A stretch of DNA of 52,634 bases from Crocinitomicaceae bacterium. GTDB taxonomy: Bacteria > Bacteroidota > Bacteroidia > Flavobacteriales_D > Crocinitomicaceae. The notes under the pieces were generated by a model that had not been told where the DNA came from, made no database searches, and saw only the letters and a program-made list of their open reading frames with translations. The DNA is taken from NCBI GenBank assembly GCA_044354455.1, contig JBILAB010000001.1:1-52634 (forward strand), in the 5' to 3' direction. This document shows positions 2,766 to 27,173 of the stretch, piece after piece (the first letter of the stretch is position 1; each line of letters starts with the position of its first letter). Both the position numbers and the translations under genes were made by a program.

Positions 2766-5366
2766 ATGATCCGAATTATTTTATTCATTTTATTCATTTT
2801 AATTTCACAATATGAATATGCTCAGAATTATGTTTTTGGAGAATTAACAGGAAATCCGTTAAATACTATTGGTTGGAATTTAACAGGAAATACATTTGTT
2901 GGGGATACTCCAGGTGATGCTGATGCCTTTAGTGATGAACTTATTTTAACCAATGTTTTACAAACCCAAAGTGGTGGAGTTTTTTTTAATAATCCCATTA
3001 ATCTTTCAGTTTGTTCAAAATGGACAGTAGAGTTTGATTATCGACTTTGGGGTGGACCAGGTTCTTGCCCATATGGAATTGCAGATGGTCTAGCTTTTTG
3101 TTTCATTGATGTTCCACCAGCAGGTTTCGTTAATGGTGGAGGAATAGGTATTCCCCAAACTGCAAATGGTTTGAAAGTCGTTTTAGATACTTACGAAAAT
3201 GGCTGTGGGACTAACCCAGAGTTGCAAATATTTTCTGGTATAGGATATGATGAATGCGCTCCAGCAATGGTTAAATTAACGAATATCAATGGAAATCTTA
3301 ATTTCATTAGAAATTCAGCTTATCAGCATGTCAAAATAACTTATATTAATGGTTTAATTAGTCTTTATTTAAATAATACGTTTTATTTATCTGCAACTTT
3401 TATAACTAATTTTACAGGTTATATGGGTTTTACTGCTTCAACTGGAGGCGGTTGTGATCAACAATCAATAAAAAATGCAATTATTTTGACTGAGCAGGCA
3501 ATTTCGGATGCTGGACCAGTTAATGGTTCTACTTGTAGTGATGTTCCTTTGAGTATTGGCGTAACAAATAATCCACTCTATTCTTATTCTTGGTCGCCTG
3601 CATTGGGTTTGAGTTCAACTTCTGCTTCTAATCCTACTTTAACATTAACAAATTCAACGAATTCACCAATTACTTATATTTACACTGTTTCTACTACCTT
3701 ACTTACAAATTTTAGTGCTTGTCCAACAACAGATCAAATTTCTGTTACAATTCACCCAATCCCAACAATGACAAGTCCTGAATTAGGTGTAATTTGCTCA
3801 GGAATACCCTTAAATTTTCCTTTAACATCCAATGTTACAAGTGTTAATTATTCCTGGTTAGCAGCGATAAATCCTGATGTTATCGGAGCAAGTACGATAT
3901 CAGCAATCACAAATCCTACAATAAATAACACACTTATTAATTCCACTTTAATTCCCCAAACTGTTGATTATACTGTTACACCCTCATCAAATCCTGGAGC
4001 TTGTCTAGGATTACCACAAACAGTTTCTATTTCTGTAAATCCTATTCCAACTATGACCAGTACTGCTACAGAAGTAATTTGTTCAGGCGAAACCTTAAAT
4101 TTCTCTCTAACATCAAATCTTCCGAGTTCATATTCCTGGGTAGCCGCTTCTAGCGCTACTATAGTTGGAGAAACAACAACTCCAACTTTAAGTCCCACCA
4201 TTAATAATACTCTTGTTAATACAACGACGACTAATCAAAATATTATTTATACAATTACACCAACATCAATAGCTGATGCTTGTGTTGGACAAGCACAAGC
4301 AGTAACAGTTACAGTTAATGCAAGCCCAATATTAACATGTCCTTTAAACGGAGTTATTTGTTCTGAAACGCAATTAAATTTCCCTTTAACTTCTAATACA
4401 CCTAGCGCTTTTTCATGGGTAGCTGCTGTTAATACAAATATTAATGGTGCAAGTATAACACCAATTATAAGTTCAATAATTGATAATACACTTATTAATT
4501 CTAGTCTTGGTCCGCAAAATATTGTTTACACAATTACATCAACTACACTAGCTGATGCCTGCATTGGTATAGAGCCAGTAACAATTACTGTAAATCCAAA
4601 GCCTGTATTATTAATTACCCCTGACCAGGAAATGTGCTCGGGTGATATTGTTCAGATTGATGTTAGTGGTGGAACTATTTATCAATGGGGTATTTCTCCT
4701 GTAGTATCAAATTCTAGTTCAAATCAGAACTTGGTTTCTCCGAGTCAAACATCAACTTATGAGGTTATTGGGTTCAATATTTACACTTGCTCTGACACCG
4801 TTGAATCTATTGTTACTGTTAATCCTAATCCAATTGCAGATTTTAGTGTAGACCGCACTTTATTGACGAGTGATGATCCTACTATTACAATTACGAATAA
4901 TAGTAGTGGTGGTGTCTCTAATATCTGGGATTTCGGCGATGACAATCAATTAGAAAATAATTTAAATACGATTGATTATTCGTATCCTTTTTCAGAAGGA
5001 GACTATTTAATTGAATTGCTTGTAATTTCTGTTGATGGTTGTTTGGATTCGACAGAGCATTTAATTCAAATTAAAGGCGATGATATCTATTATGTTCCAA
5101 ATTCTTTTACGCCAGATGGTGATGAATTCAATAATTCTTTCTTGCCGATATTTACAACAGGTTTTGATCCAGCGAATTATGAGTTCACAATTTACAATCG
5201 TTGGGGAGAAATTATTTTTGTTTCTAAAAACCATCTAACTGCTTGGGATGGTACTTTTAATAATAAATTATGCAAAGAAGGACTTTATCCTTTTACAATC
5301 AAATACAAAAACCCAGATATTGATAGATTTAAAATAATTTCTGGTCACATTAATTTATTGAGATAA
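2766..5366 (+). CDS. Secreted multidomain adhesin-like protein. It has a signal peptide, an L-type (legume-like) lectin domain, three tandem PKD-like repeats, further Ig/PKD-like modules and a T9SS type B (gliding motility-associated) C-terminal domain.
   Basis: The N-terminus is hydrophobic (MIRIILFILFILISQYEYAQ). The lectin-like block has ADGLAFCF and GFTASTGG motifs. There are three ~93-aa repeats (NPIPTMTS..ICSG..LNF.LTSN..SYSW.A..........INNTL.N......Y.....S...C). A WDFGDDN PKD-type motif is present. The C-terminus YYVPNSFTPDGDEFNNSFLPIF...FTIYNRWGEIIF...WDGTF is typical of the T9SS type B sorting domain. Confidence 0.85.
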   Translation: MIRIILFILFILISQYEYAQNYVFGELTGNPLNTIGWNLTGNTFVGDTPGDADAFSDELILTNVLQTQSGGVFFNNPINLSVCSKWTVEFDYRLWGGPGSCPYGIADGLAFCFIDVPPAGFVNGGGIGIPQTANGLKVVLDTYENGCGTNPELQIFSGIGYDECAPAMVKLTNINGNLNFIRNSAYQHVKITYINGLISLYLNNTFYLSATFITNFTGYMGFTASTGGGCDQQSIKNAIILTEQAISDAGPVNGSTCSDVPLSIGVTNNPLYSYSWSPALGLSSTSASNPTLTLTNSTNSPITYIYTVSTTLLTNFSACPTTDQISVTIHPIPTMTSPELGVICSGIPLNFPLTSNVTSVNYSWLAAINPDVIGASTISAITNPTINNTLINSTLIPQTVDYTVTPSSNPGACLGLPQTVSISVNPIPTMTSTATEVICSGETLNFSLTSNLPSSYSWVAASSATIVGETTTPTLSPTINNTLVNTTTTNQNIIYTITPTSIADACVGQAQAVTVTVNASPILTCPLNGVICSETQLNFPLTSNTPSAFSWVAAVNTNINGASITPIISSIIDNTLINSSLGPQNIVYTITSTTLADACIGIEPVTITVNPKPVLLITPDQEMCSGDIVQIDVSGGTIYQWGISPVVSNSSSNQNLVSPSQTSTYEVIGFNIYTCSDTVESIVTVNPNPIADFSVDRTLLTSDDPTITITNNSSGGVSNIWDFGDDNQLENNLNTIDYSYPFSEGDYLIELLVISVDGCLDSTEHLIQIKGDDIYYVPNSFTPDGDEFNNSFLPIFTTGFDPANYEFTIYNRWGEIIFVSKNHLTAWDGTFNNKLCKEGLYPFTIKYKNPDIDRFKIISGHINLLR
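3750..4590 (+). repeat. Three in-frame tandem repeats of about 276-285 nt (PKD-like protein modules) inside the adhesin gene
   Basis: Repeat boundaries fall at about 3750, 4035, 4314 and 4590. Each begins with (V/I)(N/H)P(I/S/K)P and contains the conserved ICSG..LNF.LTSN and INNTL(I/V)N segments. Confidence 0.8.
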
Positions 5367-5501: not shown

Positions 5502-5575
5502 TAGCGAGACCGAGAGTTGAACTCGGGACCTTTGGGTTATGAATCCAATGCTCTAACCAACTGAGCTATCTCGCC
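5502..5575 (-). tRNA. tRNA with anticodon CAT. It is either elongator tRNA-Met or tRNA-Ile2, which is read after lysidine modification.
   Basis: I folded it by hand into a 74-nt cloverleaf. The acceptor is GGCGAGA/TCTCGCT (G1-U72 wobble), the D arm is GCTC-AGTTGGTTA-GAGC, and the anticodon loop is TTCATAA. The variable loop is AGGTC, the T arm is CCGAG-TTCAACT-CTCGG, and the discriminator is A. No CCA is encoded. Confidence 0.9.
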
Positions 5576-12141: not shown

Positions 12142-13773
12142 TTATTTTCTAAAAATCTCTTGAATCGGAATTCCTGTCATAGCTCCAGATTGTTGCAGAT
12201 TTAACAAATGACTAAGTGTTGGTGCAATATCAATTATTTGATAAGGAGTAAACACATCTCCTTTAGTAATATTTTTTCCACACCAAAGTAAAGGGACATG
12301 TGTATCGTAATTAAAAGATGATCCATGAGAGGTTCCTTTATGTGCGCTCGGAGTATCCGATGATTTAAGTAAATATCCTGGCTCTAGTGTAAAAATAATT
12401 TCTCCACTTCTTTCAAAGTCGTAGCCATTTTGAATCATCGTTTTCCAAGTATTGTTAGCACCATTGTCTTCGATTAATTCTTTTGAGGTATAAACGACCT
12501 TCACTTCTGGCCAAGTTCTTATTTCATCTCGGATATAGTCTGCTATAAGATTAATACTTAGGTTTAAAGATGAAATTCTAGTTTTATTCAAATAGATATT
12601 CTGATTTTCTTCTTTTTCGATAAGATTTTCTCCAAATTTTTCAATACTTTTTTTTGCTAATTCACTTAACTTTGTATCTAAAAATAAATAGCCTCCAGGT
12701 AGTTTTTTATCAATTAACATTTGAGGAACAGGAACTACGGCATGGTCTGCAGTTAAAAAAACAGTAAAACCATCTTTCCCACACTTTGCAGTTAAAGCAT
12801 CTAATAAACGACTTATTTCCAAGTCTAAGCGCAGGTACATATCTTCTATTTCTAGTGAATACGGTCCGAAAGCATGACCTGCAATATCTGGAGTGGAGTA
12901 ACTAATGCATAGCATGTCTGTTTGAAGATCCTCCCCAAGTTTTTCATTTTTCAGGGATTCCAATGCTAAATCAGTAAGTAATGTATTGGCAAATGGTGAA
13001 ATTGTAAAAAGTTGATTGGCTGAAGCTTCATTTCCCATTTCTAAAAAATTATAGGGAAATTCAGCACTTGTTTTTCCTCCAATTATTTGTTCATAAGGAC
13101 TTTTATCAATAGAAGTATAACGGTCTTTTGAGAGCAGTAAATCCCAGTTTTTTGTGTAGCTTTTGGAATTGTTTTTTGAGTTAAATTGCTGTAGCCACAG
13201 AGGAAGTTCTTTTTTAAAAAAGCTACTCGTGATAAATGTCCCTGTTGCATAATCAAACCAATAAGAGCCATCACTTAAGTGTCCTCCTGGCAAAATAGCA
13301 GAACGGTCTTTGTAGGATATGGAAATTACGCGAGCACTTGGATATGTCAATTTCAACTGATCCGTTATTGTATAGGTTTTTAAATTTCTCGGAGATCTTT
13401 GTCCATCAGTTGAAATACTTCCAACAGTTGACTCTCTTGAATCAGTAACACAATTGATTATACTTGAAGTTTTTCTGTCGTACCATTCATTTCCTACGAT
13501 GCCATGATCTGCAGGAATACTTCCTGTGTAAATTGAAGCGTGACCAGGACCAGTATAAGTTGGAACATAATTGTAAAGTATGTTCCGAATATTCATGCCT
13601 TGGTTTAAAAATCGGTTAAAACCAGTTTTGCAAAAGTTTGCTTGATAACGGTAGAGATAATCGTAACACATTTGGTCAACAACAATCCCTACAATCAATT
13701 TAGGTTTCTTTGTTTCTTGAGCTAATAAGTTAATTGCACTAAAAAATAGGAAAAATAACAAGTTTGTTTTCAT
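12142..13773 (-). CDS. Alkaline phosphatase family protein (PafA-like, nucleotide pyrophosphatase/phosphodiesterase fold)
   Basis: This 543-aa ORF has a signal peptide. It also has VVDQM..DYL.RY, PTYTGPGHASIYTG..P..HGIVGNEW, the LTADHA metal site and a C-terminal GTSHGS. Confidence 0.8.
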   Translation of the reverse strand: MKTNLLFFLFFSAINLLAQETKKPKLIVGIVVDQMCYDYLYRYQANFCKTGFNRFLNQGMNIRNILYNYVPTYTGPGHASIYTGSIPADHGIVGNEWYDRKTSSIINCVTDSRESTVGSISTDGQRSPRNLKTYTITDQLKLTYPSARVISISYKDRSAILPGGHLSDGSYWFDYATGTFITSSFFKKELPLWLQQFNSKNNSKSYTKNWDLLLSKDRYTSIDKSPYEQIIGGKTSAEFPYNFLEMGNEASANQLFTISPFANTLLTDLALESLKNEKLGEDLQTDMLCISYSTPDIAGHAFGPYSLEIEDMYLRLDLEISRLLDALTAKCGKDGFTVFLTADHAVVPVPQMLIDKKLPGGYLFLDTKLSELAKKSIEKFGENLIEKEENQNIYLNKTRISSLNLSINLIADYIRDEIRTWPEVKVVYTSKELIEDNGANNTWKTMIQNGYDFERSGEIIFTLEPGYLLKSSDTPSAHKGTSHGSSFNYDTHVPLLWCGKNITKGDVFTPYQIIDIAPTLSHLLNLQQSGAMTGIPIQEIFRK

Positions 13774-13927
13774 CTGCCAAATTTAAGGAATGAACTCGTA
13801 ATTCTCTTATTTTTCCCATAGAATAATCAATTGAAATTAATTGCAATAAAATTATATTCGAATTTACTTTTTCTTCCTTCTAAAATTTAACTTCAAAAAG
13901 ACTTTGTGTTAAATCAAAAAAGAACGA

Positions 13928-15181
13928 TTAATTCTTTATGAATTTATAATACTTTCCATTGTTCTCTAGCAAGTAAGCACCATTTTTAAGATTTGAAACA
14001 TTAACAGTTTTTTCGAATGTGCTTATAACTTCTTTGCCGCTTAGTTCTAAGATTCTTGTCTTCCCAGAAGAAAACCCAGATAAATAAAGATTTTCTTTCG
14101 TTGGATTAGGATAAATTACTAGCGAATTTTCTTGCTCTTTTAAACCAACACTTGGTCGCACATCAAATACAATAGTTCCAGGTGAAATGCCTACGTTAAA
14201 GTTTGATAGTTCAGTATTGTTGTCGTCAAAAATATGGATTTTCCCAAAAGAGAAAAAGTCAGTTTCGCTGGTGTACAATTGACCAGAAACAGGCTCCTGA
14301 GCTAATTCATAATAATTGATGGAATGTCCAGTGATTGGTCCACTTAAGTTCATTAAGTTGATATCAAATTCATTCAAAGTAGTTTCCATAGAAATTTGGT
14401 AAACTAATTTATCATCGAGTAATGCAGAAGTCCCACATCCAGTTGCTACAGATTGTAAGTTAACAGTTACATTACTACTGCCATTCAAAGCTACTTTTGA
14501 TACGGATGCGTTAGACCAATCTTTATTGTTTACAGTATATAGAAAATCTCCTGATTTCATCAAATTATCTGGATTTTTTCCATCTGGACCAAGGTCTACT
14601 TCATTTCCATAACTTAAGTTATCTAGGTTTAATTTTCCAATGATACCTTTTTCATTTCCCCACTCGTAGCCATTATTAATTGCAATATAAGCTACTGAAC
14701 CATCAATTACGATATTTTGACTTGCCCATTTTGGACCAGAAATTGTATCTATTGCTTGAATTAAAGAAAGTGTGTTGGCATCATAAATATGCAGATATGA
14801 ATCGAATGTAGTTAGGTATTCTCCTCTGGTTGCAATTAATTTATTTTGATAGATGCCTAAATTTCGCACGCCTGGACAAACTACTGAAGCCAGTTCCTGA
14901 TGCGTATTCAAGTCCATTTTGTAGATTTTCGAATCTGCAGCGACATAATAAAAATCTCCATCGATGATAAGATCTGACCCAAAACGCATTCCGTTTAAGG
15001 TGCTGACTACACTATAAATTTGAGTTGATGGATCGTAGCTGCCAATAGTTACTGGATCAATAATTTGATTTGTTTGATAATCAAAATATCCTTCGTTTAG
15101 AACAAGAACTTTGTGAAGGTAGTTTTGCGAGAATGTAAAAGCTGAAATTAATAATAGAACGGAAGTAAAAAGTTGTTTCAT
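13928..15181 (-). CDS. Secreted YncE/DUF5074-like beta-propeller protein with a T9SS type A C-terminal sorting domain. It lies directly downstream of the cobalamin riboswitch.
   Basis: This 417-aa ORF has a signal peptide (LLLISAFTFSQ) and an N-terminal VLVLNEGYF...GSYDP motif. It has repeated blade-like segments (KIYKMDLNT, LHIYDANT, AYIAINNG, FLYTVNN). The C-terminus VIYPNPTKENLYL...NLKNGAYLL is typical of the T9SS sorting domain. Confidence 0.75.
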   Translation of the reverse strand: MKQLFTSVLLLISAFTFSQNYLHKVLVLNEGYFDYQTNQIIDPVTIGSYDPSTQIYSVVSTLNGMRFGSDLIIDGDFYYVAADSKIYKMDLNTHQELASVVCPGVRNLGIYQNKLIATRGEYLTTFDSYLHIYDANTLSLIQAIDTISGPKWASQNIVIDGSVAYIAINNGYEWGNEKGIIGKLNLDNLSYGNEVDLGPDGKNPDNLMKSGDFLYTVNNKDWSNASVSKVALNGSSNVTVNLQSVATGCGTSALLDDKLVYQISMETTLNEFDINLMNLSGPITGHSINYYELAQEPVSGQLYTSETDFFSFGKIHIFDDNNTELSNFNVGISPGTIVFDVRPSVGLKEQENSLVIYPNPTKENLYLSGFSSGKTRILELSGKEVISTFEKTVNVSNLKNGAYLLENNGKYYKFIKN

Positions 15182-15290
15182 TTTTTTTTTAAGTTTTTAA
15201 AACATTAATAAATAAAACAGGCTAAAATGGAATCATAGGGATACGTCTATCCCATTATTGAGTCCGACTTTAATCTGAAGTCATATCTCT

Positions 15291-15451
15291 GTTCTCAGGC
15301 AAGTCTTCTGGCTCACACCCTTTTAGTTTCTTCCTTCCCGTTTTAAAACAGTGGCTTATGGAAACCCATTTTAAGTGCTTACAGCTGCAGACACAGCTCC
15401 GGGATCTAACCGGATTCCTTTTTAATTTGCTTTTAGGCAAAACCAAAGAAC
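15291..15451 (-). promoter_or_regulatory. Cobalamin (B12) riboswitch
   Basis: The minus-strand RNA contains the conserved core elements in the correct order. They are AAAAGGAAUCCGGUUAGAUCCCGGAGCUGUGUCUGCAGCUGUAAGC, then GCCACUG-N9-GGGAAGG, then the B12 box AGCCAGAAGACUUGCC. A closing P1 helix (GUUCUUUGG/CCUGAGAAC) is present. The E. coli btuB leader aligns closely by eye. The region is locally G+C-rich in an AT-rich intergenic spacer. Confidence 0.85.
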
Positions 15452-15455
15452 AGTA

Positions 15456-15463
15456 CAAAATTA
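15456..15463 (-). promoter_or_regulatory. Candidate -7 box (TAATTTTG) placing a transcription start at the 5' edge of the riboswitch
   Basis: The reverse complement of caaaatta is TAATTTTG. Its G lies 4 nt upstream of the first P1 nucleotide (15451). Confidence 0.5.
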
Positions 15464-15489
15464 AATGAATTATTGAGCAATTGCAGTTT

Positions 15490-17040
15490 TTATTTTATTT
15501 TTTGCAATTTAAGGGAGTGTGACCCTGAATTTTTAATCACTTGAATCAGGTAGTTTCCAGCTGGCAGTTCGCTTGTCTCACAAGGAATTAAGTGTGTTCC
15601 TTCGCTTAAGTCTTTTGATCCAATTTCTTTAACCATTTGACCATATATAGAATAGATATAAACGGATACTCTTTCGTTTAATGTCGTAATTTTTAGGGTG
15701 CAATTACTAGGAGTGGGGTTAGGAAACACGATACACTTTAAATCTAGTGATTCATCTTCATTTAATCCTAAAGTACAGCCGCTTAATACATTAATAAAAG
15801 TAATGTTTTGTTCAAATAAATTTTGAATGGATGAAACCGGAACTTCAAACCAATCTTTTAAAATCGAGGCATAAACATCTCTAAAATCAATTTTCATTTC
15901 AACTCCCGATTGACTATCTATTTGATTGCTTATTTGAGGATTAGGTCCAATTATCCCTGAATTAACACATTTTCCAAATAGGAAAAGAGGGGCGGCATCT
16001 CCATGATCTGTTCCAAAACTGCCATTTGAGGCTACTTGTCTTCCGAATTCAGAAAAAGTCATTCCTGCAACGCGTTCTTCAATACCTAACAATTGCAGAT
16101 CATTTTGAAAAGCTGCGATTGCATCTGAAAGTTTTTTTAATAAATCTGCATGTTCTCCTTGAGTAGTATTTGTTTCTAAAACTTGCGAATCATGCGTGTC
16201 AAATCCATTGATATTTAAAATGTAAACTTTCGTTTTTAAACCTCCTGAAATCATTTGTGCAATGTATTTCAATTGAACAGCAATAGAATTTGTTGGGTCA
16301 TATAGTGTGGATAGTGAATTACCGGAATTCGAAGCTACACTAATCTGATTGCCATATTCATTTGTTTGATTTAGCATTGTAGCAATGTACTCTATCTGCG
16401 AACCATAGTAAGTGCCATCATTTGCAACGCTTGTCTCCAATAAATTTGCAGCATTAAACGGGTCACTTACAGCATGCGAAAAATTACCCATTAAACCTTG
16501 ACAGGTTGTTGATAATTCGGAGCCCATACTGATTGCAAATGGATCAGGAAAATCAATATTTGGATAATCCTCTGGAAAATTTGCGTGCTCACTCTCAAAA
16601 TACCTTCCCATCCACCCACTTGTTTGATTGATATCTAAAGAACCACTTGCCCAAATATCCGAAGATCTAAAATGCGACCGATTTTGCTCAGGATAACCAA
16701 CATTTTGCACTACTGTTAATTTACCCGAATCAAACATGGTTTTCATACCTGTCATTATAGGATGAATTCCAACTGAATTTGTCAATGAAAGAATTTGGTT
16801 TTCTGGAAGAATAATATTTGGCCTTTGGATCATTAGGTTATCATATTGATCTAAAGGAATAATCATGTTTAATCCATCGTTCCCGCCATTTAATCGTATT
16901 ATAATAAGTACTCGGTCTTCAGCATTTTTAGAAGTGCCGAATAATTTTTTTGTAATCGCTTGCATTCCAAATCCATTTGAAATAAATGGCAAGGACAAGG
17001 AGGCCAGAGATAAATTTTTTATAAAGCTTCTTCTTTTCAT
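15490..17040 (-). CDS. DUF1501 domain-containing protein (sulfatase/alkaline-phosphatase-like) with a twin-arginine signal and a T9SS type A C-terminal sorting domain
   Basis: This 516-aa ORF has an N-terminus MKRRSFIKNLSLASLSLPF that matches the Tat motif (S/T)RRxFLK. The core has RLNGGNDGLN, GFDTH and GTDHG, typical of DUF1501. The C-terminus VFPNPTPSNCTLKI...LPAGNYLIQV is a T9SS CTD. Confidence 0.8.
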   Translation of the reverse strand: MKRRSFIKNLSLASLSLPFISNGFGMQAITKKLFGTSKNAEDRVLIIIRLNGGNDGLNMIIPLDQYDNLMIQRPNIILPENQILSLTNSVGIHPIMTGMKTMFDSGKLTVVQNVGYPEQNRSHFRSSDIWASGSLDINQTSGWMGRYFESEHANFPEDYPNIDFPDPFAISMGSELSTTCQGLMGNFSHAVSDPFNAANLLETSVANDGTYYGSQIEYIATMLNQTNEYGNQISVASNSGNSLSTLYDPTNSIAVQLKYIAQMISGGLKTKVYILNINGFDTHDSQVLETNTTQGEHADLLKKLSDAIAAFQNDLQLLGIEERVAGMTFSEFGRQVASNGSFGTDHGDAAPLFLFGKCVNSGIIGPNPQISNQIDSQSGVEMKIDFRDVYASILKDWFEVPVSSIQNLFEQNITFINVLSGCTLGLNEDESLDLKCIVFPNPTPSNCTLKITTLNERVSVYIYSIYGQMVKEIGSKDLSEGTHLIPCETSELPAGNYLIQVIKNSGSHSLKLQKIK

Positions 17041-17060
17041 TCGTAATAGTTATTTTTCTA

Positions 17061-18632
17061 TTATATTGTTTCGTACTGTGGCATTTTAAATACGGTATTT
17101 AAGACAAAACGCATTCTTATTTTAACAGGATCAGAGACAACTATATTTGTGGGGTCTGCAATGTAAGCATTGTATTGATCAGTCCACTCAAAATCTGGCA
17201 AGCCGTTGGTTAATATTCCTTTTAAGTAAATTTTATCTGCAGTATTTATGTCTTTTGGAAAGAAAATAGTGCAAATATCATCGATAACAACACTTGCATT
17301 ATCAGGTATTGATAGTCCATCTAAAAATCCAAGTATATTTAAGCTAAAATTATTTGTGCCAAATCCATTAAAAAGCATTGCCCCAATGAAGTCAAATCTT
17401 TTTTTAATGTAAGTTGAATTTATCCAGAGCTTTGAAAATGCGGGAGCTTGGTAATAGGCAGTCCATCCAGAAACACTTGGTGGTCTAGCATAATCTTGCC
17501 CCATAGTACTTGCAAAGTAATAAATGTTTAAATAGATATCTGAGTTTACAGCAAGTCCAAAATTTGGGGCAGTTCCAGTAGCATTCAAAATCCCATAGAT
17601 CATTTCATAGGGATTGCGGATAATTGCTCCTCTAATACTTAGATCATAGAAATGTTCGCTAGTAAATAATTGATGAAGCACTGGTAAAATTTCATAATTG
17701 TTAGAGGTAAGAGTTAAAGCCATACTCGGAATAATGTCAGACATTACAAAGGCATTTAAATCATAATTAACAAAATAACGATAGAGTTTTGAGCAAATAA
17801 ATGTCGCAACTTGACTTTGATTAAAGATTACATCAATAAAATCGGAGTATTCTTGCGCGTCGTTTGCATTAATAATTTGACCATTGAAATGATAAGAAAG
17901 TTGTTTGCTTGAATTATCATGTAAAATAGGATTAAAAGATACTTCTACTTGTGTTAAGCTATCACTTCTGATGCCAGTTACAACATAAGCAGTAAGAATT
18001 TTAGCACCTGCAGCAACATCATCTTCTGTGTAATGGGAATAATCTCCTGTTGCAATTTGATCGCCTTTTCCAATAGAAAATAATTCAAGTAATTCGCGAG
18101 AATAGTTTTCATTTGGAGAATAAACAGTATTTGAAGAACCGTTTAAAAAAAGAAGCATGCTTGGATCTATTGTAACATCTTTAACTAGTTGCTTAAAGTT
18201 TCCTAAAGCACTCTGGCGTAAAAGCATTAAAAAATGATACATTGCTCGAGATTCAGAAGTATCTCCTGTAACTCCAAAATGATTTTGCCAAAAAAAGACT
18301 AATTTTTCTGCAACACTTCCATTTTCCTCATTAATATTTTTATTTGTCCAAGCTGCAAGAGATCTTGAACGTGCATTTTCGCATTCTTGATTTTCAGCTT
18401 GATTTGAAGGGTATACTGAATTTACCCAAGTACTTCCTTGCGCAACAATTGTTTCGCCGGGATGATATGCCAGAGGAGGACTTGTTTGAGGGATTTGAAG
18501 TAAGCTTGTCACGGTGTTTTCCATGCCATCTACAACAGCAGCTATTATCTGCTGATTCGTTGCACCAAAAACTGTCCTTCGCAATAAATGTGCTGCTTCT
18601 GCTTTTGTCCATGGCCCACTGTAAGGAGTCAT
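17061..18632 (-). CDS. DUF1800 domain-containing protein
   Basis: This 523-aa ORF has an N-terminal AAHLLRRTVFGAT motif and the general layout typical of DUF1800, which is usually encoded next to DUF1501. No N-terminal signal peptide is visible. Confidence 0.75.
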   Translation of the reverse strand: MTPYSGPWTKAEAAHLLRRTVFGATNQQIIAAVVDGMENTVTSLLQIPQTSPPLAYHPGETIVAQGSTWVNSVYPSNQAENQECENARSRSLAAWTNKNINEENGSVAEKLVFFWQNHFGVTGDTSESRAMYHFLMLLRQSALGNFKQLVKDVTIDPSMLLFLNGSSNTVYSPNENYSRELLELFSIGKGDQIATGDYSHYTEDDVAAGAKILTAYVVTGIRSDSLTQVEVSFNPILHDNSSKQLSYHFNGQIINANDAQEYSDFIDVIFNQSQVATFICSKLYRYFVNYDLNAFVMSDIIPSMALTLTSNNYEILPVLHQLFTSEHFYDLSIRGAIIRNPYEMIYGILNATGTAPNFGLAVNSDIYLNIYYFASTMGQDYARPPSVSGWTAYYQAPAFSKLWINSTYIKKRFDFIGAMLFNGFGTNNFSLNILGFLDGLSIPDNASVVIDDICTIFFPKDINTADKIYLKGILTNGLPDFEWTDQYNAYIADPTNIVVSDPVKIRMRFVLNTVFKMPQYETI

Positions 18633-18646
18633 AAAGTAGGTTTTAA

Positions 18647-18732
18647 ATAATTAATTTTTTTACTATTTCATGAAAAATAGTATGCTAATATAATTAATTT
18701 TTTTACTGTTTCATGAAAAATAGTCTGCTAAT
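18647..18732. repeat. Perfectly phased 43-nt tandem direct duplication (2 copies, 2 mismatches) spanning the stop codon of the Kazal-protein gene
   Basis: 18647-18689 is ataattaatttttttactatttcatgaaaaatagtatgctaat. 18690-18732 is ataattaatttttttactgtttcatgaaaaatagtctgctaat. Copy 2 encodes the last 10 codons plus the stop. Copy 1 is intergenic and contains a perfect 8-bp inverted repeat (tactattt/aaatagta). Confidence 0.9.
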
Positions 18733-20016
18733 CTTATTGTTCTGTTTTAGTTTTAAGATGTATGTCCCTTTTACAAAATTAGACAGGTCAATTTCAACTT
18801 CTTTTCCAGAAAAGCTACCAGTATATACTTCACGATTTAAAACATCTAGAATAACCAATTCACTGTTGCCCGAAGTATAATTTGTAGTTAAAGTAAGATG
18901 CTCAGAAGCTGGATTTGGATAAAGATTAATTTCAAGGTCTTGCTCAGAAAGAGAGGAAATCAAACAAGCTTGGCAAGAAAGCATAATTGTATACAAGGAA
19001 GCAGAATAATCAATCATCCCTGAAATGTTTGAACATCCAGAAATCATTGCGCATTGTCCGTTGATAATGCCTATTCCAAGAGGCATTGAACAAAATCCAA
19101 AATCAACGTTTGATAAATCTGAACATGGAGGGGCAAGATCAAATTCCATGCAGTTTGCTTGGCAATTTTCTAGACTTGAATCTATAGCCAAAGCATAATC
19201 AATATTTCCTACAATTGTTCCACAGCCGCTAATTGGACTGCAAATCCCATTAATTAAACCATAACCCATAAACATTGTGCAAGCACCAAAGTCAATTCCT
19301 GCTAAATCTGCACAAGAATCTGCAAATGTAATAGTTCCTTGACATTCCCCTGGAGTCCAGGAAGTTACACCGCCCCAATTTTCAGCTTCGCAAGAATTGC
19401 TGTATGTAACATTATTACAACCACAAACAGGAATAAAAACTGTTGGGCAAAAAACATCAAGATTTATTTGAGTGGAATCAATGCATGTTAAAATTTCACC
19501 GCAAGGGTAGGGCAACACGCAAATATTATTATCATAGTTAAAAATAACGGATCCTATGAAATTTGAAGGAAAAGGAGCTGTTAATCCTGAACTCGATACT
19601 GAATAAGGTATTGTAGTTCCTCCAACTTGTCCAAAATAAGCTAATTCTCCACTTGCTATGACATCACCATTTAGATTTAGTACTTGTGAAACATATGGAT
19701 AATTAATAAAATTATTAAAATCACCACTAAAATTAATTGATACATTGAGTATTCCAGAAGTGTCAAAAGAAATGTTTTCTGCGCAAAAAGATGAGCATGA
19801 AATAGTACTTGAACATGCTCCCTCTGTCCACGCAGTTACACCTCCTAGATTAACCGCAATACAGTCATTTGAATAAGTAACGCCATCGCATCCACAAACG
19901 GGTGCGTAAATCATAGGGCAAATAGCAAATGAATCAATTAGAGCTGGATTTACACATTGAGAAAAATTATAGGTTTTAAATCCAAAAATTAGAATTAGAA
20001 GTAGGATGTATTTCAT
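18703..20016 (-). CDS. Secreted Cys-rich protein with two Kazal-type inhibitor domains, two copies of an uncharacterised 6-Cys module and a T9SS type A C-terminal sorting domain
   Basis: This 437-aa ORF has a signal peptide. Kazal signatures are CPMIYAPVCGCDGVTYSNDC...C (aa 21-68) and CPTVFIPVCGCNNVTYSNSC...C (aa 178-225). The repeated modules C.DL..(I/V)DFG.C.M..G.G.ING.C..ISGC....G.IDY........CQA.C lie at aa 235-289 and 298-351. The C-terminus NLYPNPASEHLTL...VKGTYILKL is a T9SS CTD. Confidence 0.8.
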   Translation of the reverse strand: MKYILLLILIFGFKTYNFSQCVNPALIDSFAICPMIYAPVCGCDGVTYSNDCIAVNLGGVTAWTEGACSSTISCSSFCAENISFDTSGILNVSINFSGDFNNFINYPYVSQVLNLNGDVIASGELAYFGQVGGTTIPYSVSSSGLTAPFPSNFIGSVIFNYDNNICVLPYPCGEILTCIDSTQINLDVFCPTVFIPVCGCNNVTYSNSCEAENWGGVTSWTPGECQGTITFADSCADLAGIDFGACTMFMGYGLINGICSPISGCGTIVGNIDYALAIDSSLENCQANCMEFDLAPPCSDLSNVDFGFCSMPLGIGIINGQCAMISGCSNISGMIDYSASLYTIMLSCQACLISSLSEQDLEINLYPNPASEHLTLTTNYTSGNSELVILDVLNREVYTGSFSGKEVEIDLSNFVKGTYILKLKQNNKISRLFFMKQ

Positions 20017-26159: not shown

Positions 26160-27173
26160 TTAGTTTGCTTTATAATTTTGTAATAGTTCGTTATAGGATT
26201 TTTTGTTTAACTCAGAGATACTAATATCATGGTTATCCATGTATTGGTGAACGATACGCCAAGCTAAAAATTGCCCTAGTCTATCAGGACTTTCATCAGG
26301 TAGTCCAATAGTAAAAGGTCCTTCATTTAAAAGATTAGACCTCGTTTTTTCATCTGTTTTGAATAGTAATTCATTTTCAACAAGGTATTTCCAAAACATG
26401 CCTTCACTTTTAAGAGCCCAATCGAACTGACTTTTAGAATAACGCAAAATTTGATTTAGTTCTTTATCAGGCATTGTTGCCTGGGTAATGTATAGAATTT
26501 TTCCCCAGCGCATCATTTCACTTGCATAATTTTCTGATGTTTCAGGAAAATAATGTGTCATTAGCCATGCAGCCATAACATCTCGTATTAAATATTCTTT
26601 CTTAATTCCGTTTTTAATCCAAGTAAAAAATTGTTCATTTGGAAGTTCTTGAATTACTTTTTCATTTGGCTCTAAATAGCGTTCAACTCCAATTGCTATT
26701 TCTTTTTCAGTGCAAAATACACTAGCTGAGAACGAAGAGTTAATAAAATAGATGTTTTCCGGTATTTTTTCTTTTGGGTAAAATACTTTGAGACGTTTAA
26801 ATGCGATTAAAAGTTCTTTTTTCTCTGATGAAAAGTCACCATGTTTTTTTTGTATAGTTCGCTCTAGTCTATTAATGTAATTATTACTGTAAAATCTCCT
26901 CAAACCATTAATATAAGATGAGTCACTTTGTAAACTTCCGCCAATGCAATAACCAAAAGTATAATCAAGTATTGATGAATTATTTCTCTTAAATTTAGAT
27001 TTTAAATTCAATAGCTCTTTATCTGTTGAGTTTCTTAATGCTGAATCAAGGTTTAAAAATTTTAAATCAATTTGTATGCCTTCTATCGAAATTTTAAATG
27101 GCTCCTGCGAACAAGCAAAAAATAAACATAGTGTCAAGAGAATTGTCGAAATTATATAAAGCCTTGTTTTCAC
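26160..27173 (-). CDS. gldB: Gliding motility lipoprotein GldB
   Basis: This 337-aa ORF has a lipoprotein signal (LTLCLFFACSQ). The C-terminal block MFWKYLVENELLF..D......L..GPF.......SPDRLGQFLAWRIV..YM.N...S..EL resembles F. johnsoniae GldB. Confidence 0.85.
   Translation of the reverse strand: MKTRLYIISTILLTLCLFFACSQEPFKISIEGIQIDLKFLNLDSALRNSTDKELLNLKSKFKRNNSSILDYTFGYCIGGSLQSDSSYINGLRRFYSNNYINRLERTIQKKHGDFSSEKKELLIAFKRLKVFYPKEKIPENIYFINSSFSASVFCTEKEIAIGVERYLEPNEKVIQELPNEQFFTWIKNGIKKEYLIRDVMAAWLMTHYFPETSENYASEMMRWGKILYITQATMPDKELNQILRYSKSQFDWALKSEGMFWKYLVENELLFKTDEKTRSNLLNEGPFTIGLPDESPDRLGQFLAWRIVHQYMDNHDISISELNKKSYNELLQNYKAN

Follow-up and report, generated by a model that had tools for sequence, protein, structure and literature searches.

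We analyzed a 52,634-nt stretch of DNA (here called the window) from a freshwater Crocinitomicaceae bacterium of the Bacteroidota (assembly GCA_044354455.1, contig JBILAB010000001.1, positions 1 to 52,634 of the forward strand), in which a cobalamin riboswitch lies on the minus strand 5' of an open reading frame (ORF) of 417 amino acids (aa). According to the ORF list, this ORF spans positions 13928 to 15181 on the minus strand, with an ATG start and the stop codon included in the span, and it is the sole gene consistently tied to the riboswitch. On the same strand, its product is divided into a signal peptide (aa 1 to 19, 15125 to 15181), a seven-bladed beta-propeller of the BtuG superfamily (aa 20 to 343, 14153 to 15124; AlphaFold2, Foldseek, hmmsearch, and hhalign), a short, disordered linker modeled by AlphaFold2 with low confidence (aa 344 to 354, 14120 to 14152), and a C-terminal type A sorting domain of the type IX secretion system (T9SS; aa 355 to 417, 13931 to 14119; PF18962, TIGR04183, and the structural model). 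The protein probably represents a T9SS-exported branch of the BtuG superfamily and is predicted to be a B12-repressed extracellular corrinoid binder.

A cmscan search of the whole window identified the aptamer as RF00174 at positions 15281 to 15462 of the minus strand (102.7 bits, E=1.2e-24), with a score about three times the gathering score of 31.5 and the model covered end to end (positions 1 to 189 of 189). Its identity is virtually certain, and it is a class-I-type cobalamin riboswitch. The original prediction, made from the sequence alone, had placed a complete-looking cobalamin riboswitch at 15291 to 15451, followed after about 110 nt by the 417-aa ORF; the covariance model supports the former within slightly wider bounds, and the latter was confirmed, with its ATG 99 nt downstream of the aptamer end. 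The Rfam scan of the 52 kb found this riboswitch only. Orthologous loci carry aptamers of 69 to 108 bits and keep a constant spacing of 105 to 116 nt between aptamer and ATG.

Pattern matching located a Bacteroidota-type −7 promoter box, TAATTTTG, directly 5' of the riboswitch (15456 to 15463, minus strand). This box and a second one before a downstream phosphatase gene were both present as had been proposed, but the motif TAnnTTTG is not enriched in the window (102 matches versus 89±10 expected). The riboswitch-side box is nevertheless conserved at a fixed offset, as 27 of 45 unique orthologous upstream regions have TAnnTTTG 39 to 40 nt 5' of the GGGAA core of the aptamer, compared with 2.5% of random windows.

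The expression platform begins at its junction with the aptamer with an invariant hairpin, GACTTCAGATTAAAGTC (15266 to 15282, minus strand), which RNAalifold recovered with nearly zero variation; the motif is kept in 91 of 118 riboswitch-linked loci, and the hairpin might act, for example, as a kissing-loop partner. It is followed by a second, terminator-like hairpin, GGGATAGACGTATCCC (15238 to 15253, minus strand), and a U-rich stretch (15207 to 15237). RNAalifold returned the invariant hairpin alone, since MAFFT cannot align the variable one, for which anchored per-sequence folding was used instead. In 65 unique platforms folded in this way, the second hairpin had a mean energy of −7.1 kcal/mol, versus −2.8 kcal/mol for shuffles, and was preserved by 59 distinct stem sequences, with a 3' tail of ∼60% T. 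Such a covarying hairpin with a U-rich tract is terminator-like and would be consistent with an off-switch.

At the protein level, the relationship to BtuG was visible by profile methods only. The N-terminal 350 aa gave zero Pfam or NCBIfam matches even at an E value of ≤10, scans against the same databases detected no catalytic domain or motif in the window protein, and a single-sequence phmmer search of the PDB returned noise only (designed propellers and a ribosomal protein). A profile built from 79 diverse full-length family members (A1) matched, by hmmsearch, the structures of BtuG2 (3DSM, 8BMY, 8BN0, 8BAZ, 8BAI, and 8BMX; E∼1e-13, profile positions 26 to 341), BtuG3 (8P97, 8OKV, and 8PUJ; E of about 1e-11), and BtuG1 (8BLW, 8PTD, and 8PTF; E of 1e-8 to 1e-10), these entries being assigned to BtuG1, BtuG2, and BtuG3 according to the primary papers. 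Moreover, hhalign against a BtuG2 alignment gave a probability of 98.6% (E=6.6e-16, 285 columns). The AlphaFold2 model computed with A1 (predicted local distance difference test [pLDDT] score, 94.1; predicted template modeling score, 0.82) contains ∼30 strands in seven blades and a separate C-terminal beta-sandwich at aa 355 to 416. The fold comparison called for by the proposed propeller agreed with the profile homology: the best 12 Foldseek matches in the PDB were all BtuG1, BtuG2, or BtuG3 (E of 1e-14 to 1e-16; template modeling [TM] score on the target, 0.73 to 0.82; root mean square deviation, 2.5 to 3.8 Å), followed by generic propellers with much poorer deviations; BtuK1 was at rank 20 (TM score, 0.70). 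BtuG-superfamily fold and homology can thus be stated with very high confidence. The proposed YncE/DUF5074-like label found no direct Pfam or NCBIfam match, but the superfamily that it implied was correct, because BtuG2 homologues carry PF16819/DUF5074 and bear the name "YncE family protein" and because profile and fold link the ORF to BtuG; the window protein is best described, from sequence and model comparisons, as a superfamily relative of BtuG outside the Pfam DUF5074 family.

Export by the T9SS is predicted with high confidence. The signal peptide, read from the sequence as MKQLFTSVLLLISAFTFS-QN, is of the signal peptidase I type, with no lipobox Cys and with Gln at +1; by inspection, the window protein ends its signal in ...TFS-QN, and orthologues keep ...AQA-QN. 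At the other end, Por_Secre_tail (PF18962) matches aa 356 to 411 with 32.2 bits against a cut-off of 27, TIGR04183 is a borderline match, and A1 also matches the solved C-terminal domain structures 8glk_D and 8glj_D. Across the family, lipobox-like N termini were seen in 1 of 159 assessable members, Por_Secre_tail was found in 64 of 79 diverse members (best E=8.8e-17), and a full sorting domain was present in 125 of 154 complete C termini (122 by the alignment cut-off, plus L003, L036, and L072, which fell marginally short). In addition, longer members carry Big_9/cadherin spacers between propeller and sorting domain, and genes for GldB and at least four further sorting-domain proteins lie in the window. 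Because the protein combines a signal peptidase I-type signal lacking a lipobox with a sorting domain, in a window that encodes GldB and other sorting-domain proteins, it is judged from these sequence features to be T9SS cargo, unlike the lipoprotein BtuG, so that both the signal peptide with sorting domain and the export in place of lipidation expected by the original prediction are upheld.

Among the remaining 29 C termini, which are largely marine, most have a shorter tail of ∼45 aa, and one (L077) runs off the contig. This tail occurs in the mostly marine loci L122 to L132, L134, L138, L140 to L145, L148, L151 to L154, L159, L161, and L163, in place of the ∼70-aa Por_Secre_tail, and retains the last strands (D-x-F-G-R...G-I-Y-I...G-K-K); it may be a minimal or variant T9SS signal. 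Elsewhere in the window, a lectin/PKD protein with a CHU_C (type B) sorting domain (2766 to 5366, plus strand), GldB (26160 to 27173, minus strand), and three type A cargo genes (within 13928 to 20016) together indicate a T9SS-proficient organism.

The pairing of riboswitch and gene was then followed in other genomes. In a GTDB scan, 168 stretches contained relatives, all of them from freshwater Crocinitomicaceae or Flavobacteriales metagenome-assembled genomes, and the best 80 loci (59 to 96% identity to the window protein) were analyzed. A riboswitch lay directly 5' on the same strand in all 77 assessable loci, the other three having contigs that end <190 nt upstream of the gene; Rfam confirmed seven of these loci at 91 to 108 bits, with one riboswitch each. 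The flanking genes vary (PNPase, PRTase, arginase, Tex, and others) and are often on the opposite strand. Because the pair is kept while its neighbors change, riboswitch and gene behave as one portable unit. A metagenome scan seeded with a six-sequence intermediate clade, a 53-sequence distant alignment having proved too diverse, brought in 80 further loci (marine, lake, wastewater, and mat samples); nhmmer found a riboswitch in 41 of them, weak matches being confirmed at 69 to 102 bits, and 28 assessable loci had no cobalamin riboswitch within ±7 kb. Over all loci, 118 of the 149 assessable ones were riboswitch-linked, 31 were not, and a further 16 could not be assessed. The loci without a riboswitch were 15 from the window's own clade together with L085 to L098, L101, and L158, which come from wastewater, digester, and mat metagenomes. 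The family is large: a search of 1.84 billion representatives with aa 19 to 352 (E≤1e-3) yielded 414 clusters (50% identity level), the most distant at about 25% identity. An ordinary homologue search with the window protein gave hits of >91% identity only, the distant ones being reached by the exhaustive representative search. Public names of family members are restricted to "hypothetical protein" or "T9SS type A sorting domain-containing protein".

The 13 corrinoid contacts of BtuG2 listed in a structural preprint (bioRxiv 10.1101/2024.02.16.580637) were mapped onto the window protein through the hhalign alignment; mapping by MAFFT --add was dropped, as it disagreed with HMMER past the first motif. 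Five contacts are identical (E55 to E30, G56 to G31, F58 to F33, R133 to R106, and I148 to I110, BtuG2 residue first), three are conservatively replaced (W149 to Y111, Q219 to N203, and N107 to D83), and the others are changed (Q93 to S69, S131 to G104, S195 to E173, W272 to G250, and I359 to S333), W272 being represented by Ala in BtuG3. The arginine appears in section 5 of the preprint as "Arg135"; residue 135 of BtuG2 is Ile, and the nearby arginine is R133. Since the 12 other listed residues fit the numbering, "Arg135" is probably a typographical error, and R133 was used. Contact positions are enriched among columns with ≥90% conservation (6 of 13 versus 31 of 313; Fisher P=0.0014; 61 sequences, nonredundant at 80% identity), which supports a conserved pocket in a test that is partly circular, profile alignments being anchored on conserved motifs. 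Corrinoid binding by the propeller is predicted from these comparisons and appears likely.

Unlike a typical btuG, the gene has no receptor beside it. An iterated receptor profile detected no TonB-dependent receptor in the 52-kb window, and the three window ORFs of ≥590 aa do not encode one. Both the absence of an adjacent receptor and the genetic uncoupling from it, as originally proposed, therefore hold for this lineage: among riboswitch-linked loci, a TonB-dependent receptor was found within the flanks in 12 of 117, and nearby in 4 of the 53 that are flanked by ≥5 kb on each side. Eleven of the 12 receptor-bearing loci share one ∼818-aa orthologue just 5' of the riboswitch-propeller unit (L065:1730-4186, with orthologues in the divergent lineages of L055, L078 to L080, L114, and L116 to L119). 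This receptor consists of CarboxypepD_reg, Plug, and barrel domains, and the riboswitch occupies the 230- to 315-nt gap between it and the propeller gene. As a partner BtuB it was rejected, since it had generic TonB-receptor matches only and lies outside riboswitch control. A role in acquisition with an unlinked receptor is considered moderately probable.

A genetic link to corrinoid uptake was observed at locus L082, where a 610-aa family member (26 to 28% identical to the window protein) lies 3' of a 97.4-bit cobalamin riboswitch and is followed on the same strand by genes for an FGE-sulfatase-like protein, a small sorting-domain protein, a BtuB1-type receptor (E=2.4e-123 to 8BLW_A), and a BtuG1-type propeller (E=8.5e-77), such that a T9SS propeller and a canonical BtuB-BtuG pair coexist. 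In this operon (L082:4109-11668), the T9SS propeller carries Ig/cadherin spacers, the FGE-sulfatase-domain protein has 500 aa, the small protein (126 aa) is little beyond a T9SS sorting domain, and the last gene encodes a 139-aa protein. At L081, the trio of FGE-like protein, small protein, and receptor likewise comes after a family member, without a riboswitch.

A second link is provided by DUF6580 (PF20221), a ∼170-aa membrane protein with six helices and an invariant RLIPHPPNFTP motif, whose gene adjoins the propeller gene in 19 of 164 loci. Three gene orders occur: DUF6580 stands directly before the propeller gene, before it but separated by the riboswitch, or directly after it in a two-gene riboswitch operon (L102). 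Examples of DUF6580 genes are L102:8295-8822, L124:1790-2281, L161:6469-6978, L165:4001-4600, and L168:4001-4603, and two more lie after 425- to 446-aa sorting-domain proteins. The same gene occurs in riboswitch-controlled operons, namely, riboswitch (89.9 bits)-TonB-dependent transporter-DUF6580-cobU-cobT-cobS-cobC in Chitinophaga japonensis and riboswitch (94.5 bits)-btuB-btuG(DUF5074)-DUF6580-btuF-like; three other contexts have no B12 link. Its profile gave no hit against the PDB by sequence, and the best PDB folds for its AlphaFold model (pLDDT, 93.2) were S-components of energy-coupling factor (ECF) transporters (TM score, 0.58 to 0.66; probability, 0.95 to 0.98; weak E values). From this structural model and its gene contexts, DUF6580 is a candidate new inner-membrane corrinoid transporter, and we found no literature on it. 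In another context, with no tie to B12, a DUF6580 gene separates the delta and alpha subunit genes of an F-type ATP synthase operon (L167:4001-4627). In addition, DUF6580 has on its 3' side, at two unrelated loci, an ATP-binding, diphthamide-synthase-like gene (Diphthami_syn_2), which comes next in one (L166:4583-5245) and behind a BtuF-like gene in the other (L168:5564-6217), with a B12 riboswitch at one locus and not at the other; it may be a further conserved partner.

Based on these data, the following mechanism is proposed. A dedicated promoter would drive transcription into the class-I-type cobalamin riboswitch, which, at sufficient intracellular cobalamin, would most likely switch the gene off via the hairpin and U-rich tract. 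The predicted BtuG homologue would pass the inner membrane by Sec and the outer membrane by the T9SS, without lipidation, and end up surface-attached or released. There it would bind corrinoids in a BtuG-equivalent pocket formed by the N-E-G-x-F motif, R106, [I/V][Y/W]110-111, and N203 and would hand them to a TonB-dependent receptor whose gene lies at another place in the genome, with inner-membrane import possibly proceeding through the ECF-S-component-like DUF6580 in lineages that link both genes. That riboswitch and gene form a self-contained, single-gene corrinoid-scavenging module is reasonably likely. A more far-reaching version is speculative and, in our estimate, unlikely: in aquatic Flavobacteriales, the BtuG-like protein would be a soluble "corrinophore" that is secreted by the T9SS, picks up dissolved B12 at a distance from the cell, and delivers it to an unlinked receptor; DUF6580 would carry it across the inner membrane as a new class of corrinoid transporter; and the route would be distinct from both E. 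coli BtuBFCD and the lipoprotein relay of gut Bacteroides.

Several observations weigh against the interpretation as a B12-repressed corrinoid binder. The window protein has no match to DUF5074 (PF16819) even at E≤10 and falls below the Pfam threshold, DUF5074 matches in the family being weak and limited to 3 of 79 members; TIGR04183 scores 22.9 against a cut-off of 23, 0.1 bit short. Only 5 of the 13 BtuG2 contacts are identical, W272 and Q93 being replaced by G250 and S69, and the contact test has the partial circularity mentioned above. The riboswitch is not obligatory for the family, being absent within ±7 kb from 31 of 149 assessable loci, and the pocket positions are equally conserved in riboswitch-linked and riboswitch-free loci, which suggests the same ligand under different regulation. 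A generic terminator scan called no canonical intrinsic terminator in the platform or elsewhere on the minus strand, and the U-tract is weak within the window's own clade. No partner receptor was found within the locus flanks. Because the L082 member sits beside a canonical BtuB-BtuG pair, the family member may be an accessory binder rather than a replacement for BtuG. Lastly, both binding and B12-dependent expression are properties that we infer.

If corrinoid binding is assumed, the protein could still be a BtuG in the strict sense, that is, the lid of a BtuB encoded elsewhere, held in a stable complex by a T9SS tether (anionic lipopolysaccharide, A-LPS) in place of a lipid, rather than a free or relay binder. 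The closest structural and sequence relatives, BtuG1, BtuG2, and BtuG3, do form stable lids on BtuB, and the Ig/cadherin spacers of the longer members are typical of surface-anchored proteins; however, btuG adjoins btuB in 106 of 109 gut Bacteroidetes operons, compared with a receptor in 4 of 53 well-flanked loci here, and the position of the L082 member beside BtuB1-BtuG1 in the same operon fits an accessory role better than a lid, such that we regard the lid as an unlikely arrangement. Improbable, too, is a BtuG-superfamily propeller with a noncorrinoid ligand or another surface function that the riboswitch would couple to B12 status, for instance as a B12-independent alternative. Eight of the 13 BtuG2 contacts are not identical, 31 family loci lack a riboswitch, related surface propellers bind other ligands, and BtuK2 does not bind B12. 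This is opposed by the riboswitch link, universal in the window's GTDB clade despite changing neighbors, by the independent ties to btuB/btuG and to DUF6580, the latter found in cob and btu operons, and by the lack of any detected catalytic domain or motif. A binder that mainly withholds corrinoids from competitors instead of feeding its own uptake would agree with the uncoupling of gene and receptor and with the ability of BtuG2 to out-compete host intrinsic factor, but a gene repressed by intracellular B12 follows the logic of acquisition, and the recurrent DUF6580 linkage and the btuB gene in L082 argue for uptake; we give it little credence. Least credible is a longer operon in which the propeller is the first gene and the riboswitch also governs a downstream PafA-like phosphatase and class III aminotransferase, as same-strand orientation, a 154-nt gap, and no terminator called between ORF and PafA would allow, since these two genes follow only in L001 to L005, whereas ∼75 other GTDB loci have unrelated, often opposite-strand downstream genes. 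The preferred interpretation remains the T9SS-exported corrinoid binder described above.

The PafA-type alkaline phosphatase (NF042991, 602 bits) and the class III aminotransferase lie 3' of the ORF on the same strand, as Pfam and NCBIfam confirmed for the original prediction. Its doubt about including the phosphatase in the regulon was borne out, as both genes adjoin the propeller gene only in the five closest relatives, and on synteny they were rejected as regulon members. The −7 box before PafA, TAAATTTG (13778 to 13785, minus strand; pattern match), ends 4 nt before the PafA ATG (13771 to 13785, minus strand), and such a single match is not significant in the window; if functional, the box would give a leaderless or nearly leaderless PafA mRNA. 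On the 5' side of the riboswitch, genes encode a DUF1501 protein and a Kazal-domain protein, both bearing sorting domains, as well as a DUF1800 protein. The DUF1800/DUF1501 pair stands directly 5' of the riboswitch module (15490 to 18632, minus strand), and the joining of DUF1501 to a T9SS sorting domain is an unusual fusion for a pair that is normally Tat- or periplasm-associated; the protein with the Kazal-type inhibitor domain is encoded at 18703 to 20016. A tRNA gene (RF00005, 69.4 bits; 5502 to 5575, minus strand) bears no relation to the finding.

Few microbes produce vitamin B12, which is limiting for many aquatic bacteria and algae. Its capture at the cell surface is understood almost only from the lipoproteins BtuG, BtuH, BtuJ, and BtuK of gut Bacteroides. 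The present analysis adds to the BtuG superfamily a large clade, as yet unnamed, that occurs in abundant Flavobacteriales of lakes and oceans and has another export route and a stand-alone riboswitch module, and the riboswitch-gene pairing across more than 100 lake and ocean lineages points to an undescribed variant of aquatic B12 scavenging. If binding proves true, B12 scavenging in aquatic Bacteroidota would be predicted differently from their genomes, ultra-tight corrinoid binders would gain a second natural scaffold, and DUF6580 would be a testable candidate for an inner-membrane corrinoid importer. We found no relevant description of a T9SS-sorted BtuG-like protein or a "corrinophore"-type concept in the literature; a 2026 review covers gut lipoproteins only and lists inner-membrane corrinoid import as a key gap.

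Among known systems, several share parts of this arrangement. T9SS type A cargo, such as proteins with gingipain C-terminal domains and secreted Flavobacterium enzymes (PF18962/TIGR04183), has in common with the window protein the Sec signal, Gln at +1, and a C-terminal beta-sandwich of ∼70 aa, and we found no literature on vitamin-binding or riboswitch-controlled T9SS cargo. DUF6580 resembles BtuM and CbrT, B12 transporters of the solitary or ECF S-component type, in that its best folds are ECF S-components and it sits in B12-riboswitch operons, but it has no sequence similarity to any solved structure, and BtuM was not among the top fold hits. According to the 2026 review, BtuK1, BtuH, and BtuJ are extracellular accessory corrinoid binders encoded 5' of btuB-btuG under a riboswitch. 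The L082 member occupies an operon position like that of BtuK (BtuK1, BT1486; PKD plus seven-bladed propeller; 9S6C) or BtuH in operon 1 of Bacteroides thetaiotaomicron, whereas the A1 profile detected no sequence-level relation to BtuK in the PDB, and BtuK, BtuH, and BtuJ are lipoproteins, partly on vesicles, in contrast to the T9SS cargo of the window.

The closest counterpart is BtuG itself, the very tight B12-binding surface propeller of gut Bacteroides (BtuG1, BtuG2, and BtuG3 of B. thetaiotaomicron; DUF5074/PF16819; 3DSM, 8BAI, 8BMX, 8OKV, and 8PTD). BtuG proteins are characterized by femto- to picomolar affinity for corrinoids and by complex formation with BtuB. Both BtuG and the window protein have the seven-bladed propeller, BtuG being the best structural and profile match, and share the N-terminal N-E-G-x-F contact motif as well as R106 (R133 in BtuG2) and I110 (I148); both are under a cobalamin riboswitch, and both are restricted to Bacteroidota. 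They differ in that sequence identity is ∼16%, the window protein falls below the Pfam DUF5074 threshold, and the contacts W272, Q93, and S195 are changed to G, S, and E in the window protein. Moreover, BtuG is a lipoprotein, whereas the window protein has a signal peptidase I-type signal and a T9SS type A sorting domain; its gene is not adjacent to btuB, such adjacency being met only in the distant L082, and its family occurs in aquatic Flavobacteriales instead of gut Bacteroides. The window protein lacks three features that define BtuG, namely, a score above the Pfam threshold, lipoprotein anchoring, and btuB linkage; by analogy, it would function much as BtuG or the accessory binders in the Bacteroides relay do.

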